From: Raphidiopsis brookii D9
Lineage (GTDB): Bacteria > Cyanobacteriota > Cyanobacteriia > Cyanobacteriales > Nostocaceae
Assembly: GCA_000175855.1 (NCBI GenBank)
Contig: ACYB01000018.1
Coordinates: 1 to 5,227 of the forward strand
DNA: 5,227 bases
Direction: 5' to 3'
Both the position numbers and the translations under genes were made by a program. Each line of letters opens with the position of its first letter. Position 1 is the stretch's first letter. The notes below the pieces were generated by a model, which saw nothing but the letters and a program-made list of their open reading frames with translations, did no database searches and was not told where the DNA came from. This document shows, one piece after another, positions 1 through 5,227 of the stretch.

Positions 1-119
1 ATGGGGTGAGTGCTGGGGAATTTATGAAGGGGGTAAAGGGCGATCGCGCAAGTGCGAGTGCTTTGCAAACGCGCTGGGAGTGCTTGGCAAATGCACTGGG
101 GTAACTGCCATGCGATCGC
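1..119 (+). repeat. Array of degenerate copies of a short HIP1-terminated dispersed repeat (cyanobacterial SDR/MITE-like)
   Basis: Units at 56-77 (gagtgctttgcaaacgcgctgg) and 78-99 (gagtgcttggcaaatgcactgg) form a tandem 22-bp duplication, 19/22 identical. They are followed by ggtaactgccatgcgatcgc at 100-119. A more degenerate copy at 1-47 (atggggtgagtgctgggg ... ggtaaagggcgatcgc) also ends in HIP1. HIP1 octamers GCGATCGC lie at 40-47 and 112-119. A near-identical copy occurs at 5097-5143. Confidence 0.6.
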
Positions 120-188
120 GTGGAGGTCGTTTCATACCATTAATTGGTCTAAGGTATGATAGTTAGAGGTTAACAGGGTCAGTTCTTT

Positions 189-647
189 TTAATCCCCTAA
201 CAAAACTCTAATGGCTTTTAAAGCTTGGCTACGTTTCCCGTTGCTAATCTTGGCAAACCAGTAATGTGATTCTTCATAACTCATCGCTTGTATCCCTTCG
301 GCAATATTATTTATCTTTTCTATTTTTGAAAGCGGTTGTATGGTCTGAAATAATAAGGCTAGGTTTACTCCTGTTTCTTCATTTAATATGTAATGAGCTT
401 GTCTATTATAATTCAAGGTCTTTGGATCATATTTATTCGCTTTTAAACAATTATAAACCATCTCCCGAACTTGTATTAGTGTACTACTTTTTAATCTGCC
501 AATTCTTTTGGCAGCAGGACGTTTCTTTTCTCCTGCTTTTTTATAGGCACATTGATATAATTCAATGGCAAAGTTATTATTATCTGTGGGGACTACTCGC
601 AATTGAAATTCCTGCATGTTAAAACTTTTAATAGCTAAATTTGGCAA
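189..647 (-). CDS. Hypothetical small basic protein, operonic with and overlapping the DUF499 ATPase gene (family not recognised)
   Basis: The frame is open on the minus strand directly downstream of the ATPase gene. The track start at 647-645 is a TTG and overlaps the ATPase stop (630-628) by 20 nt. The first ATG is at 617-615 (MQEFQL..., 142 aa), 10 nt after that stop. The protein has a Lys/Arg patch YKKAGEKKRPAAKRIGRLK and a C-terminal SYEESHYWFAKISNGKRSQALKAIRVLLGD. The antisense ORF 266-622 is low complexity, which favours the minus frame. No motif I can assign to a named family. Confidence 0.6.
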   Translation of the reverse strand: MPNLAIKSFNMQEFQLRVVPTDNNNFAIELYQCAYKKAGEKKRPAAKRIGRLKSSTLIQVREMVYNCLKANKYDPKTLNYNRQAHYILNEETGVNLALLFQTIQPLSKIEKINNIAEGIQAMSYEESHYWFAKISNGKRSQALKAIRVLLGD

Positions 648-3600
648 CTAAGTTCAAATTGTCTACTGGATTCCTCTCCAGTGCTTTTTTAATATCTCCT
701 ATTTCTACTCCTTCTACTATAATTGGTGACGAAAATTTAAATTCTAATTTCAATAGTAGATCGGCTTTTACTTGCGGGTTATGCAAAAGATTATTCAGCG
801 CTCCCTGAAAGGCTTTAAATCCTTTCTCTGGTCCTTGATACTCTAATCTCACAAACTGCTCTTGTAAGCTAATTGTGGCTATATGGTTGATATATAGAGG
901 GAATTTGGATACTAGGGGAATAACAGTAAATAACTTTCTATAGTCTATGGGTTCTGTGACGGAAATTTCTATTTCGTTTATTCCTGATGGTTTATGGTCT
1001 TTGATGAAATCACTCAGTTTTACAAAACTGCTATTTACGGTTCCTGCACATTCAAATGTTGGTGGTTTGACTGCAAAAATAGGTGCTGATTCTTCTCTAC
1101 TAAATCCCCTTTTTGTGTTTTTTACGATGTCATAATTCACACTTTGATTATCACTAGCTCCTAGGAAAGCTGTGGTTTCTTTCTCTAGAATTTCTCCATC
1201 CCCATAGTCTACAACTATTTTAAAAGTTGTGGTTTCACTAATTTCAGTGGTATATTCATCCCGGGGTCGAAAGTCCCTGGGTATAATTTCTCCTTTTTCG
1301 TAAATTTTTATGTTTAACGCTCCTGTTGCTTTCCACCCTAGTCGAACTGGTTTTTTCATATCTTTACTAGACATGACCTGTGCATCTATTTCAATGTCTC
1401 TTGGTTTTGGTGGTTGTAAAATCCCCGGTCGATACAACTCTACTCTGTCTGAAAACTCTATGGAATCAGGAATTTTTAGGTTTTCACTTTTGATAAATAC
1501 TTTGTCTCCAATTTTCATATCCCATAAACCATCCAAAATCCCTTTGCGAATGGTGTCTCTTAGGCTAATTATTTCTCCGTCTAAAAACATTTTTAACCTT
1601 ATATCTTTGAAAAAGGCTTCTTTCATGTCTTTTGTTGTCCAGTGATCAATGCCTGCTGGCCAAACTTTTTGTATTATGTAACCGGGTGCATAAGGTTCTG
1701 AATTCTCTTTTCTAATCTTGCCACAGTCTCTTAATTTGTTTAGTAACATTTCTTGTTGTTTCTTTTTTTGGTCACTAGCATCGTTCGCTGGCAAAGGATA
1801 GTGCATTAATCCTTTTGGTGCTTTGATCTGATCGCGCTCAGGGTAAAACAGGTGACGGTAGGTGTTGGTGATCGATACTCTTACATTTAACTTATATTTA
1901 CCTTCTCTTTCTTTGAGCTTTTTTTGTTGACTCTCGGATAAATCCTGTATTTTATCGGGGGATTTGATTATATTTTCTATGGCAATATATTCCCTCATGT
2001 TATCCAAACTACGTTCTAATTCTTGTTTGTTGGCTACTAGGAATAATAATCGGTTTTTATAAATGCGGAATTTTCCTGATTCTCCTGTGTTTTCAAAAAT
2101 TCTTTCTACTATTGTGGGTACACTATGGGTGGTGTCTGAAATGGTTTGTTCATCAAAGTCTATTACACATAAGGCTATACTATCTGCTACGTCATGTACA
2201 TCACTGGGATTCACTGGTGCGGAAATTAGTGTAAAACTATGATCGGCAAAAATTGTATCCCGTTCTTTTCTTAAACGTTCCTTGGTTTCTATGTTGGTTA
2301 TTTGCTCTTTTTCTTGGGCAATCACTTTGTTGAGTGATGGCTCTTCTTTAAATTTGGCAGTAGATGTAATTTGGTCATAATCTAAATACCAAGCTACTGC
2401 TGTTAATCTTTCTAAGACTGTTTCTACAAAACTAATATCCATTCCTGGTGTGAGCAAAGATAAATTCAGCTCTGGAACGCGAATACCTGATGCGGTTCCC
2501 TGGTTGAGGGAATTGAGAAAGATGGTTCTAGCTACCCAAGTGGTGAAGGGTGGTTTATCCGCTGCTTTCCATTCCCTATCCTGTATTTGACTATGTGCTT
2601 CCCGACCATCGGAATTATAAATGTCTGCTTGGATGGGTATTCGCATTAGTTGTCTATCTAAACGAGAAGTTAAATCTCCGGTAATTTCTTCTTCTAGACC
2701 CAGGGGGATATGATGGGGATGAATCATGGGGATCCAAAAGGATGCGTTTTCACTGGTTGTAGATGTATTCTGAGCTAAGTCTTCTAATTTTTGCCAAAGA
2801 TAACGAATTACTATGGCTAATAAGCGCAATGCTCCCCTGGTCCGTTGGAAATTAGGAATGGATGCTATTTTCTTAGTGAGTAGATTAAATAGTTCTGGGT
2901 GAAATGGATAGCTCTGTTCAATGCTCTTAGCATAACTAGTATCTTTACATCCACTGGGTAGATCTAAACGACTATTTCTATAAACTTGCATATATTCCTC
3001 TGCTGCATCCCGTGCTGCACTGGAATATATATTACTAAACATTCTCTGCTTGACTATATTGTATATCTCTACATCTGAACTGGGTTTGATGATTATTTCC
3101 TGTCTTGCGGAAATAGAAAGAGCTTCGCTTATTTCTCTGGTCTCCTCTCCAAAACTGTCACTAGCGGAGGCTAGGGTATATACTAAGACGATATTATTAG
3201 TGGAGGCGGCTAAGTCCATGAGCGCAAATAAAAAGGCTACAACTTGTTCGGCTAAGTTACTATCATTTACGGTTATTGCTTTTGCCCTCCTCAAGTACAT
3301 TGCTATTTCATCCAGAATAATCACTGTGGGAGCATCTTGAATAATTCTTCTCAACACGTCCGTTCCAGGACTAACTTTTTGTTGATCTGAACCTTTGAGT
3401 AAGCTATAAGCTTCTACCTTCCCTAATTGGTAAGCAATTTCCCCCCACAGGGTATAGGTTGTAATTCCGGTGTCGGGATGAAATATACCATCTATGGGTT
3501 CTAAGTCTTGACAGGCAATGGCTGCAGCTTGAACTGCACAACTTGGTATAATTTCGATGTTATGAGTAAATCTTTCTATCCCTGGAATTTTTCTACCATT

Positions 3601-3855
3601 TTTTGCGATGTGCCATAAGGCTATTTCATCATGGGTTTTACCACCCCCAAAGCTGGTCTCTAATCTAATTACGGGTGAACCTACTGTAGTTCCACTGAGT
3701 CTACCAAAACCTTGAGTGATTAAATTTTTTAATCCATCCGTGGCAAAGGTATTTTCAAAGAAGGTTTTCGGGTCGTTATATACTTGGGGTGCAGTACCTT
3801 TTACTACTGATTCTAATTTGGCAGCAAACAGATCTAATGACAGTTCTCCTGCCAA
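628..3855 (-). CDS. DUF499 / COG1483-family P-loop ATPase (BrxC/PglY-related), 1075 aa
   Basis: An uninterrupted 3.2-kb frame. Walker A SFGGGKTH is at aa 68-75 (nt 3654-3631) and Walker B VIILDE at aa 178-183 (nt 3324-3307). The N-terminal segment LFAAKLESVVKGTAPQVYNDPKTFFENTF, plus YPFHPELF...FQRTRGALRLLA (aa 316-347; FQRTRGALRLLA at nt 2850-2815), YKNRLLFLVA (aa 599-608) and TYRHLFYP (aa 665-672), all match my recollection of DUF499 family conservation. The start codon is TTG (3855-3853), and the first in-frame ATG is codon 186, after both Walker motifs. Confidence 0.85.
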   Translation of the reverse strand: MAGELSLDLFAAKLESVVKGTAPQVYNDPKTFFENTFATDGLKNLITQGFGRLSGTTVGSPVIRLETSFGGGKTHDEIALWHIAKNGRKIPGIERFTHNIEIIPSCAVQAAAIACQDLEPIDGIFHPDTGITTYTLWGEIAYQLGKVEAYSLLKGSDQQKVSPGTDVLRRIIQDAPTVIILDEIAMYLRRAKAITVNDSNLAEQVVAFLFALMDLAASTNNIVLVYTLASASDSFGEETREISEALSISARQEIIIKPSSDVEIYNIVKQRMFSNIYSSAARDAAEEYMQVYRNSRLDLPSGCKDTSYAKSIEQSYPFHPELFNLLTKKIASIPNFQRTRGALRLLAIVIRYLWQKLEDLAQNTSTTSENASFWIPMIHPHHIPLGLEEEITGDLTSRLDRQLMRIPIQADIYNSDGREAHSQIQDREWKAADKPPFTTWVARTIFLNSLNQGTASGIRVPELNLSLLTPGMDISFVETVLERLTAVAWYLDYDQITSTAKFKEEPSLNKVIAQEKEQITNIETKERLRKERDTIFADHSFTLISAPVNPSDVHDVADSIALCVIDFDEQTISDTTHSVPTIVERIFENTGESGKFRIYKNRLLFLVANKQELERSLDNMREYIAIENIIKSPDKIQDLSESQQKKLKEREGKYKLNVRVSITNTYRHLFYPERDQIKAPKGLMHYPLPANDASDQKKKQQEMLLNKLRDCGKIRKENSEPYAPGYIIQKVWPAGIDHWTTKDMKEAFFKDIRLKMFLDGEIISLRDTIRKGILDGLWDMKIGDKVFIKSENLKIPDSIEFSDRVELYRPGILQPPKPRDIEIDAQVMSSKDMKKPVRLGWKATGALNIKIYEKGEIIPRDFRPRDEYTTEISETTTFKIVVDYGDGEILEKETTAFLGASDNQSVNYDIVKNTKRGFSREESAPIFAVKPPTFECAGTVNSSFVKLSDFIKDHKPSGINEIEISVTEPIDYRKLFTVIPLVSKFPLYINHIATISLQEQFVRLEYQGPEKGFKAFQGALNNLLHNPQVKADLLLKLEFKFSSPIIVEGVEIGDIKKALERNPVDNLNLVAKFSY

Positions 3856-3868
3856 AATTTCTGGGCAT

Positions 3869-4141
3869 GGTGCTAGTTATGAGGCTTTTGAGTCCAACAG
3901 AGAGAAAACTTTGGCGGTGGTGAAGTTATTAGAAGTTATTGGGGAAGCTGTTAAAAAAATTCCTAATGAACGCCGTGAACTGTATCCAGATATACCTTGG
4001 AAATCTATAGCAGGTATGAAGGATATGCTTGTACATGAATATTGGCAGGTTGATGTAGCAGTTGTTTGGGCTACGGTTCAGCATTCTTTACCATCATTAA
4101 AAGCAATTGTAGTGATGGAATTGGAGAAGATGCAGGGATGA
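3869..4141 (+). pseudogene. hepT: 5'-truncated HepT / DUF86 (HEPN-domain toxin of MntA-HepT type) remnant
   Basis: GASYEAFESNREKTLAVVKLLEVIGEAVKKIPNERRELYPDIPWKSIAGMKDMLVHEYWQVDVAVVWATVQHSLPSLK matches the DUF86 pattern (..F..d....dAv...leiIGEA...lp.e.....p.ipW..i.gmRN.l.HeY..vd...vw.tv...lp.L). The first helix (about 30-45 aa) is missing. The frame has no ATG: the track start at 3716 is GTG, and the first ~50 codons are merely antisense to the ATPase N-terminus. No mntA-like gene lies upstream. The Rx4HxY motif reads KDMLVHEY (nt 4019-4042). Confidence 0.65.
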
Positions 4142-4356
4142 GTAATTTGCCTATGAGAAGATTAGGGACAAATTCCCCACACGCAAGATAACGATATGTT
4201 ACGTACTAGTTAATTAAAAAGTTACTAATTTAATTGTATATCAATCAGTAAATATTACGGAATAATAAGATAATTTTACAACACCTCCATGTAAAGAGTT
4301 AAATATCACTTGATCAGCAATGATGATGTATGAATCAACGATCAAAAGGCGGAAAA

Positions 4357-4440
4357 ATGAAGAGATTTATTAAATCTTTAATCACTACTTGTTTGGTTGC
4401 TTTACTAGCTTTAACTATCTTTTCTAGTAATGCTTGGGCC
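4357..4440 (+). other. Sec-type signal peptide with AWA cleavage motif
   Basis: MKRFIKSLITTCLVALLALTIFSSNAWA/YNQ has a basic n-region, a hydrophobic core and an Ala-x-Ala signal peptidase I site. Confidence 0.65.
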
Positions 4441-5025
4441 TATAATCAAACTCAACTTGACCTTCTCAAAAGTGGAGTTGAACAATGGAATAATTGGAGT
4501 TTACACGGTGGAAGAGGAGGCGAAAATATTGACCTAACAGGAGCGGACTTAAGTGGTTTAGACTTAACGGATGCTTTTTTGCGCTTCTCAGACTTGAGTG
4601 GAGCAAATTTATCTGGTACTAACCTACATGATGCTGATCTGATTCGTGTTAATTTAAATAATGCTAATTTAGCTGGAGCAAATTTGACTGAAGCATCCTT
4701 TTCTGATACTGATTTTAGTGGAGCAAACCTAACTGGGGCAAATCTGAGTGGATACCACTATGTAAGTGATTTTGTCAATTTTCAAGGAGCTAACTTGACT
4801 GATGCTAACTTGAATAGTGAAGATCTCAAGGGATGTGATTCGAGTATATATTCTGGGTATAACAGATATAACAGATATAACAGATATAACAGCTTCGACG
4901 AATACAGATGCGAAAGCCATTTCGGTGAGAAAATAGGAGTTAGTTTCTATGGAGCAATTTACAATGAAAATACTCAATTTCCCCCTCAAGTAGATCCAGA
5001 ACTTGCTGTTGCCAAAAATTTTTAA
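4357..5025 (+). CDS. Secreted (periplasmic or thylakoid-lumen) pentapeptide-repeat protein
   Basis: Consecutive A(D/N)LxX pentapeptides span aa 67-162 of the track ORF (nt 4528-4815): IDLTGADLSGLDLTDAFLRFSDLSGANLSGTNLHDADLIRVNLNNANLAGANLTEASFSDTDFSGANLTGANLSG. An upstream LLKSGVEQWNNW motif and a C-terminal AIYNENTQFPPQVDPE are typical of cyanobacterial pentapeptide proteins. I prefer the ATG at 4357 (MKRFIKS..., preceded by aaggcggaaaa) over the ATG at 4330, which would add 9 residues. Confidence 0.85.
   Translation: MKRFIKSLITTCLVALLALTIFSSNAWAYNQTQLDLLKSGVEQWNNWSLHGGRGGENIDLTGADLSGLDLTDAFLRFSDLSGANLSGTNLHDADLIRVNLNNANLAGANLTEASFSDTDFSGANLTGANLSGYHYVSDFVNFQGANLTDANLNSEDLKGCDSSIYSGYNRYNRYNRYNSFDEYRCESHFGEKIGVSFYGAIYNENTQFPPQVDPELAVAKNF
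4858..4892 (+). repeat. Perfect 9-bp tandem repeat (tataacaga x3.9), in frame, encoding (Tyr-Asn-Arg)n
   Basis: The unit tataacaga occurs at 4858-4866, 4867-4875 and 4876-4884, with a partial tataacag at 4885-4892. 4858 is codon position 1 of Y177, giving YNRYNRYNRYN. Confidence 0.95.
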
Positions 5026-5096
5026 AATCCAAACTGTGATTATTACAACCACTATGATCCAGAATTCTATCCTAAGTGGTAAATGAGCGATCTCAC

Positions 5097-5143
5097 ATGG
5101 TGAGTGCTTCGCAAACGCGCTGGGGTAACTGCCATGCGATCGC
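5097..5143 (+). repeat. Single copy of the same HIP1-terminated short dispersed repeat seen at 1-119
   Basis: 5102-5123 (gagtgcttcgcaaacgcgctgg) is 21/22 identical to 56-77. 5124-5143 (ggtaactgccatgcgatcgc) is 20/20 identical to 100-119. Both copies are in the same orientation. HIP1 lies at 5136-5143. The leading atggtgag resembles 1-10. Confidence 0.65.
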
Positions 5144-5227
5144 AACCGATGTTCCAAAACCACAAGTACAAAACTGACTTTTGTTCTGGAGATCTTAAGT
5201 AAATACCCCCCTAAGAAGGTTTAAATT

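Follow-up and report, generated by a model that had tools for sequence, protein, structure and literature searches.

Does the ATPase gene and small basic gene found side by side in Raphidiopsis brookii D9 form a minimal two-gene defence module, or are they what is left of a larger operon? The DNA analysed here, referred to as the window, is one complete contig of 5,227 nucleotides (nt) of the D9 draft genome, carrying a DUF499-type ATPase gene (GenBank EFA73814.1, CRD_00574) followed on the same strand by a small gene of the DUF7680 family (EFA73813.1, CRD_00573). The original prediction, made from the letters alone, proposed a minimal DUF499 defence module lacking methyltransferase and helicase or, alternatively, a recently orphaned piece of a classical operon. 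Our results indicate that the D9 pair is very probably a deletion remnant of a known four-gene methylase/helicase/ATPase operon, which is complete in Cylindrospermopsis raciborskii CENA303, and that ordinary gene decay accounts for its present form.

The truncated ATPase gene and the deletion relative to CENA303

The long open reading frame (ORF) of 1075 amino acids (aa) is uninterrupted, as had been described, and its proposed assignment to DUF499 was confirmed by profile hidden Markov model searches (Pfam PF04465, E 2e-39, 135.6 bits with a cut-off of 23; PADLOC HmaC, E 1.7e-98, residues 9-680). The predicted Walker motifs were also located, namely Walker A with K73 (GGGKT, residues 70-74) and Walker B (VIILDE, residues 178-183); K73 of the window ORF is K88 in full-length numbering. 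Against the NCBIfam equivalog model NF042962 ('anti-phage-associated DUF499', a DUF3780-linked clade) the protein scored 206.3 bits, under the 1200-bit cut-off; its clade is related to, but distinct from, the equivalog clade. The description of this gene as intact, on the other hand, did not hold. The sole possible start is the TTG at 3855, corresponding to Leu16 of the 1090-aa full-length protein, since an in-frame TAA at 3877-3879, 22 nt upstream of the TTG, closes the frame above it after seven codons. The ORF is consequently without the first 15 residues (MLTTVFKTCTPRPEI), of which codons 1-11 are deleted and the other four lie upstream of the TTG. The residues lost from D9 include the motif ML..vF.TC.PR.EI, conserved in 63 cyanobacterial loci, and correspond to positions 10-24 of the HmaC profile, to which the CENA303 protein aligns from position 10 and the window protein from position 25. 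A promoter scan of the minus strand gave no sigma-70-like site in the roughly 400 nt that precede the TTG, and the count of such sites in the window was not above that in shuffled sequence.

In CENA303, whose sequences at this locus carry the working names L104 and L001, the operon consists of a DUF1156 methylase (986 aa), an SNF2 helicase (1062 aa), the DUF499 ATPase (1090 aa) and, last, DUF7680. Along the plus strand of the window the CENA303 order reads DUF7680 (minus), DUF499 (minus), two small ORFs, helicase (minus), methylase (minus), MntA (plus), HepT (plus) and a pentapeptide-repeat gene (plus). Window positions 1-3866 align to CENA303 with 99.5% nucleotide identity, where the alignment ends (2414-3866 correspond to L104 1-1453, with 99.7% identity), and positions 3867-5227 correspond to L104 9548-10904 with 98.7% identity, on the same CENA303 contig and 8,094 bp further along. 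The segment gone from D9 comprises the 5' end of the ATPase gene with its upstream region, the two small ORFs, the helicase, the methylase, MntA and the 5' end of HepT, and spans from ATPase codon 11 to HepT codon 24. The DUF1156 methylase and the SNF2 helicase, neither of which is present in the window, both lie inside it, at L104 5305-8265 and 2015-5203, respectively. Neither microhomology nor a repeat was found at the junction, which has unique sequence on both sides. Within the deleted segment, the methylase matched the PADLOC models HmaB (9.7e-76) and PglXI (1.5e-14), and the helicase, with SNF2-rel_dom and Helicase_C domains and a phospholipase D (PLD)-like N-terminus (weak Pfam PLDc_2 match), matched PLD_Helicase (2.2e-75), PbeA (1.6e-75), HmaA (2.5e-56) and BrxHI/BrxHII (1.2e-69). 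The suggested link of the ATPase to a methylase/helicase system is thus borne out by the full CENA303 operon. A full operon at the syntenic locus of a close relative had been named by the original prediction as speaking against its minimal module, and its presence in CENA303, at 99.5-99.7% identity, refutes that proposal; its second option, a recently orphaned piece, agrees with one clean deletion.

The same event explains the broken hepT that had been noticed on the opposite strand. The fragment matches the Pfam HepT-like profile (4e-24) over positions 14-117 only, its first 24 codons are gone, and it stands head-to-head with the ATPase gene. As in MntA-HepT type VII toxin-antitoxin pairs, the CENA303 HepT gene is preceded by an overlapping MntA nucleotidyltransferase gene; unlike them, D9 has lost MntA and keeps an incomplete HepT. 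The broken HepT is a by-product of the deletion and stands outside the DUF499 system. The ancestral arrangement would have been a CENA303-type four-gene operon facing MntA, HepT and the pentapeptide gene, in which a single deletion would have placed what remains of the ATPase gene, deprived of its first 11 codons and of its whole upstream region, head-to-head with HepT, itself shortened by its first 24 codons.

The direction of this change was considered as well. By comparison of the aligned loci, D9 is taken to represent the derived state, because the genes at both flanks are cut in D9 and whole in CENA303, because the ATPase N-terminus lost from D9 is conserved in 63 loci, and because another clade of the species complex (L109; synonymous divergence, dS, about 0.1 from CENA303) likewise has the helicase next to the ATPase. 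The opposite scenario, in which CENA303 carries an insertion and the two-gene arrangement of D9 is ancestral in the lineage, could appeal to the Cylindrospermopsis gene order (methylase, helicase, ATPase, DUF7680), a circular permutation of that in other cyanobacteria (ATPase, DUF7680, ..., methylase, helicase), so that the locus was rearranged at some point. An insertion could not, however, have created at its ends the first 11 codons of the ATPase gene, the first 24 codons of HepT, and MntA, and the adjacency common to the L109 clade also speaks against it; we therefore give this scenario practically no credence.

The junction could also be an assembly artefact, or mark an inversion or translocation. 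D9 has a small genome of 3.20 Mb, available as a 454-era draft of 157 contigs with an estimated 100-150 kb in gaps, which its authors ascribe to repeats (PMC2821919). The window is a small contig of this fragmented draft with repeats at both ends, and JGI metagenome contigs contained no exact copy of a 33-mer spanning the junction, while a 26-mer from the pentapeptide gene retrieved two 1-kb contigs there, both ending short of the junction. A 454 chimera or a translocation, with the methylase and helicase elsewhere in D9 and the system functionally complete, would accommodate these facts. The D9 assembly breaks at repeats, whereas the junction lies in unique sequence. Furthermore, no D9 protein is among the four members (all listed) of the 90%-identity cluster of the CENA303 methylase, which argues against a relocated methylase copy, nor among the listed members of the helicase or MntA clusters; and even with an inversion, the ATPase gene would still be without its first 11 codons and its promoter. 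Taken together, we regard a chimera or translocation as very unlikely.

With the deletion as the preferred explanation, the D9 remnant is most likely an inert pseudogene of very recent origin, with a DUF7680 gene left stranded behind it, given that it has no methylase, effector, native start codon or native upstream region and that the conserved N-terminal motif is lost. D9 and CENA303 differ in the ATPase gene by 14 substitutions over 3,228 nt (about 0.4%), 5 of them synonymous and 9 non-synonymous. With so few changes since their divergence, chance alone would be expected to leave the frame unbroken, and the open ATPase frame is uninformative on selection; it has not had the time to break.

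Other observations concern the ATPase gene itself. A near-identical copy (98.9%) was found in Logan ERR2868525 (L002 961-1140, equivalent to window 1640-1817), with two +1 insertions in A-runs (A8 instead of A7, and A6 instead of A5) that split it into ORFs of 354 and 332 aa, which reflect genuine decay in a different strain or else sequencing error in homopolymers. In the C-terminal part, residues 783-817 (window 1330-1450) gave a weak NCBIfam match to RnfH (E 0.0024), and several homologues carry the JGI label 'ubiquitin-RnfH superfamily antitoxin RatB', which points to a small beta-grasp-like domain within this variable C-terminal region. At the HepT end of the locus, the JGI metagenome contig Ga0208089_1018704 (L092) is 98% identical to the window only from position 4154, just past the HepT stop, and its remaining 64 nt have no match to HepT; the MntA-HepT pair appears to be absent from the site in that organism.

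The DUF7680 protein and its gene neighbourhoods

The small ORF behind the ATPase gene had been described as a Lys/Arg-rich frame of 142-152 aa, overlapping or nearly abutting it, and both forms can be recognized: a longer TTG form (189-647, 152 codons) overlaps the ATPase gene by 20 nt, and the ATG form leaves a gap of 10 nt. Homologues have 142-143 aa and begin with MQEFQL, so the ATG form is the real gene. Its product is a basic protein (isoelectric point 9.6, with 14 K and 8 R among 142 residues), matches the whole Pfam PF24728 (DUF7680) profile (positions 1-141 of 141; E 1.1e-44, 152.4 bits with a cut-off of 24), and is 100% identical to the CENA303 protein. An exhaustive HMMER search gave 283 representatives of the family at 50% identity (E<=0.001), and no publication on DUF7680 was found in a literature search. 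The possibility that the protein is a BrxA was rejected, as the PADLOC match (E 0.0026) covers 59 residues only and the predicted model has an N-terminal beta-sheet; a Foldseek search of this model against the PDB returned nothing at E<=0.001, with no BrxA among the 50 matches listed.

To place the pair in the context of its family, one genome per species was scanned, yielding 180 DUF7680 relatives, of which 80, all cyanobacterial, were kept for neighbourhood counts. The co-occurrence that had been suggested as a check is strongly conserved: of the 77 loci whose upstream sequence is long enough, 75 have DUF499 immediately before DUF7680 on that strand, at a median gap of 23 nt. Where at least 9 kb of flanking sequence is available (50 loci), a DUF1156 methylase is found downstream of DUF7680 in 47 and a helicase in 40; the three methylase-less loci hold an orphan DUF7680 (L029) or partial DUF499 matches only (L027, L071). 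A 39%-identical non-cyanobacterial homologue belongs to a tight DUF499-DUF7680-DUF1156-PLD/SNF2 operon within a defence island, with adjoining GmrSD, NERD, HNH and type I restriction genes. On the strength of the linkage to DUF499 and of the methylase that follows, DUF7680 is the fourth component of the full system, and not the partner in a two-gene system.

The distance between DUF7680 and the methylase ranges from 0.17 to 8.2 kb (median 2.3 kb), often with variable genes in between (L008-L087). In the Leptolyngbya boryana plasmid pLBX (L089 15663-20676 and 23826-24505), genes for MerR, an S8 peptidase and an ATPase lie between DUF7680 and the methylase, and a VapC toxin pair lies between the methylase and the helicase. 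The interval between the small gene and the methylase looks like a hot-spot for cargo insertion.

One observation in favour of an autonomous two-gene defence or sensor module, with DUF7680 as partner or effector of the ATPase, comes from another C. raciborskii assembly (GCA_049958775.1, JBMNDW010000032.1; L107). At 4328-10429 it encodes a full-length 1090-aa DUF499 protein together with DUF7680, with HetZ and carboxysome-shell (BMC) genes upstream and no helicase there. Its homology to CENA303 starts only 126 bp before the ATPase ATG, and its ATPase has a dS of 0.012 from that of L109, whose helicase is upstream. From these alignments, the pair seems to have parted from its methylase-helicase half on two or more occasions, each with its own breakpoint, the alternative being misassembly. 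The open 3.2-kb ATPase frame of D9 with intact Walker motifs, and the tight linkage of DUF7680 to DUF499, could likewise be read in favour of such a module. The D9 ATPase, however, is 5'-truncated, with its conserved motif, start codon and upstream region lost; one deletion separates D9 from a complete operon, at 0.4% divergence; of the 50 loci with at least 9 kb downstream, the three exceptions described above are the only ones without a methylase; and neither the ATPase nor the small protein has a nuclease or other effector domain in Pfam, PADLOC or NCBIfam profiles. We therefore consider a self-sufficient minimal module highly improbable. A related idea, that DUF499 and DUF7680 still work together in some independent role once the methylase and helicase are lost, perhaps in nucleic-acid sensing or as a docking platform for other effectors, is compatible with two separate events, the D9 deletion and L107, in which the pair was kept and the modification/restriction half is gone; it is nonetheless very unlikely.

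Some points do weigh against regarding the D9 pair as an inert remnant. D9 is a draft with gaps, and a methylase or helicase might yet lie in unassembled or unannotated sequence, their absence from D9 being judged from cluster membership and not from reads across the junction or a direct search of the other contigs. The DUF7680 protein is fully conserved and the ATPase frame is open, and residual expression from the TTG by read-through transcription is possible. The ratio of non-synonymous to synonymous rates (omega) between D9 and CENA303 is 0.49, as compared with 0.23-0.31 between clades, and as it rests on 14 substitutions, relaxed selection and continued constraint are not separable. Finally, with the L107 pair being full-length and without an upstream helicase, such pairs may outlast the separation more frequently than chance alone would predict.

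Several observations bear on the wider distribution of DUF7680. Umezakia ovalisporum (L005-L007, L029) has an intact orphan DUF7680 gene, 79% identical (L005 10001-10429), with no DUF499, methylase or helicase within 10 kb, and kept in several assemblies; it adjoins a divergent three-gene block encoding proteins of 222 aa, 647 aa (faint AAA_16 match) and 499 aa (DUF1802). A second, 3'-terminal DUF7680 fragment is present in L105 (6065-6205), L106 (5944-6087) and L108 (5797-5937), about 2 kb downstream of the complete gene and past an opposite-strand gene of 315-336 aa. This fragment corresponds to residues 108-142 of the CENA303 DUF7680 (100% identity in protein, about 88% in DNA over 182 bp), which points to an old duplication or to an insertion accompanied by one. 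On a 4-kb contig (GCA_036681025.1, L098 579-1040 and 2218-3771), a 39%-identical homologue, P0128, is surrounded by small unannotated ORFs and adjoins a 517-aa DUF4055 protein, which we take to be of a phage-portal-like family; some DUF7680 genes may be phage-borne.

DUF7680, DUF3780 and related defence systems

The closest published counterpart of the complete operon is the Type-2 'DUF499-centred BREX-related' (BR) system, BREX standing for bacteriophage exclusion, which consists of a DUF499 ATPase, DUF3780, a DUF1156 N6-methylase and an HKD(PLD)-SNF2 helicase (PMC12839542, Rakesh & Krishnan, NAR 2026). NCBI labels its proteins 'anti-phage-associated DUF499/DUF3780/DUF1156' and 'phospholipase D-like domain-containing anti-phage protein'. 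In the Acinetobacter, Sinorhizobium and Stutzerimonas plasmid examples, these four roles follow one another just as in the complete cyanobacterial operon; the CENA303 helicase also has a PLD-like N-terminal part, and the small proteins share their predicted secondary-structure order and ASCH fusions. The differences lie in the small protein, which is DUF7680 here and DUF3780 there; in the ATPase, with 206 bits as compared with the equivalog cut-off of 1200; in the 0.17-8.2 kb of variable genes that separate DUF7680 from the methylase in cyanobacterial loci; and, for the D9 window, in the missing methylase and helicase.

The original prediction had left open whether the small protein is DUF3780-like: its slot, predicted topology and ASCH fusions agree with DUF3780, whereas no HMMER match does, the Pfam assignment being DUF7680 instead. 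Since the classical order is DUF499, DUF3780, DUF1156 and PLD-helicase, DUF7680 occupies the DUF3780 slot; between DUF499 and DUF1156, DUF3780 is found in the classical proteobacterial loci, and DUF7680 in the cyanobacterial loci and the non-cyanobacterial homologue. The DUF3780 profile (Pfam PF12635) did not match the window protein at E<=0.1, nor did HMMER match it to 44 diverse DUF7680 members at E<=10. Profile-profile comparison with hhalign was marginal (E 0.009-0.044, probability 1-5%), pairing 'MS.EEayYWfsK' with 'LRPEERWWLYsk' in a collinear manner; shuffled columns scored 13.3 +/- 2.8, with 3 of 100 attaining the observed 21.0, and shuffled blocks 13.9 +/- 2.2, with 1 of 100 doing so. 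The AlphaFold2 model of DUF7680 (predicted local distance difference test score, pLDDT, 79) has a four-stranded sheet and the element order b-b-b-a-b-a-a-a-a, equal to that of the DUF3780 model (pLDDT 66), the comparison being one of element order. A four-stranded sheet plus five helices has been described for DUF3780, together with occasional fusion to ASCH/PUA reader domains (PMC12839542). Among distant DUF7680 proteins, 12 of 65 have an N-terminal ASCH domain, in proteins of about 300 aa. Judged by position and predicted fold, DUF7680 is a probable divergent counterpart of DUF3780 and may be its homologue, for which the sequence evidence is weak. One ASCH-DUF7680 fusion gene (L100 825-1715) is followed directly by a GmrSD-type restriction gene (1751-3163) and not by a DUF1156 methylase.

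Other relatives resemble the operon in part. Hma (Type-1 BR) has three genes, its helicase with a C-terminal PD-(D/E)XK nuclease (PMC12839542), and the HmaA helicase of Halomonas meridiana is the only component with a reported anti-phage activity (PMC11232893, as cited in PMC12839542). The best PADLOC matches of the ATPase and of the CENA303 methylase are to HmaC and HmaB, respectively, and HmaA also matches the helicase; unlike Hma, the CENA303 helicase is of the PLD type and a fourth small gene is conserved, and the D9 window keeps the HmaC-like gene only. Type-3 BREX (BrxC, PglXI, BrxHII, BrxA) has related ATPase, methylase and helicase cores, and a relationship of DUF499-centred systems to BREX has been argued (PMC12839542); it differs in that PglZ, BrxB and BrxL are absent here, and that the small protein has a weak BrxA match without fold support.

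The complete operon belongs to this restriction-modification-like family of defence systems, Hma / 'DUF499-centred BREX-related'. By analogy with the literature, the methylase would mark self DNA and the DUF499 STAND-type ATPase would act as a sensor that assembles or scans (PMC12839542), with the PLD(HKD)-SNF2 helicase as the effector that restricts (PMC12839542, PMC11232893). The small alpha+beta protein, DUF7680 here and DUF3780 classically, could serve as an accessory reader or adaptor. As a weaker point, the DUF7680 operons may represent an undescribed, mainly cyanobacterial BREX-related subtype, with a divergent DUF3780-like reader and a cargo-insertion hot-spot.

Features of the window and significance of the locus

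The coordinates of all features are collected in Table 1. Downstream of the pair, the 'repeat array' of the original prediction amounts to just two tandem copies of a short unit. A further copy lies at the opposite window end (5102-5143), and related copies are dispersed across the CENA303 contig; it is a dispersed short repeat at draft-contig ends, and no functional array, its presence at both ends being explained by the breaking of the D9 assembly at repeats. An Rfam search of the window gave no match to RNA families. As had been noted, no other gene of the window shares the orientation of the ATPase and small genes. In the pentapeptide-repeat gene, window 4858-4892 holds 3.9 copies of a 9-nt unit (TATAACAGA) in perfect tandem repetition, which encode YNR repeats, and the full-length forms among its cluster members range from 222 to 233 aa, consistent with strain-to-strain variation in copy number of this repeat.

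Table 1. Features of the Raphidiopsis brookii D9 window.
Feature	Position	Strand	Remarks
Window	1-5,227		One complete contig of the D9 draft genome
Short dispersed repeat	56-119		22-23-nt unit, two tandem copies (56-100), ends in HIP1 site GCGATCGC
DUF7680 gene	189-617	minus	142 aa; ATG; starts 10 nt after ATPase stop
DUF499/HmaC-type AAA+/STAND ATPase gene, 5'-truncated	628-3855	minus	1075 codons from TTG
Deletion junction	3866/3867		8,094 bp of CENA303 absent in D9
HepT toxin gene, 3' fragment	3867-4141	plus	Residues 25-114 of the 114-aa CENA303 protein
Pentapeptide-repeat gene	beyond HepT fragment	plus	Pfam; EFA73816.1

In itself the D9 window is of little import, as a fresh deletion scar in which the ATPase gene is to be annotated as truncated and not as a new defence system. 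DUF7680 now has a context, since DUF499/DUF1156/PLD-helicase operons of cyanobacteria and other organisms contain it as their small fourth component, and its placement extends the published Type-2 'BREX-related' class to a clade missed by the DUF3780 model. At this locus D9 and CENA303 constitute a near-isogenic natural pair, one without and one with the system, and a comparison of their methylomes could reveal the recognition motif of the DUF1156 methylase.

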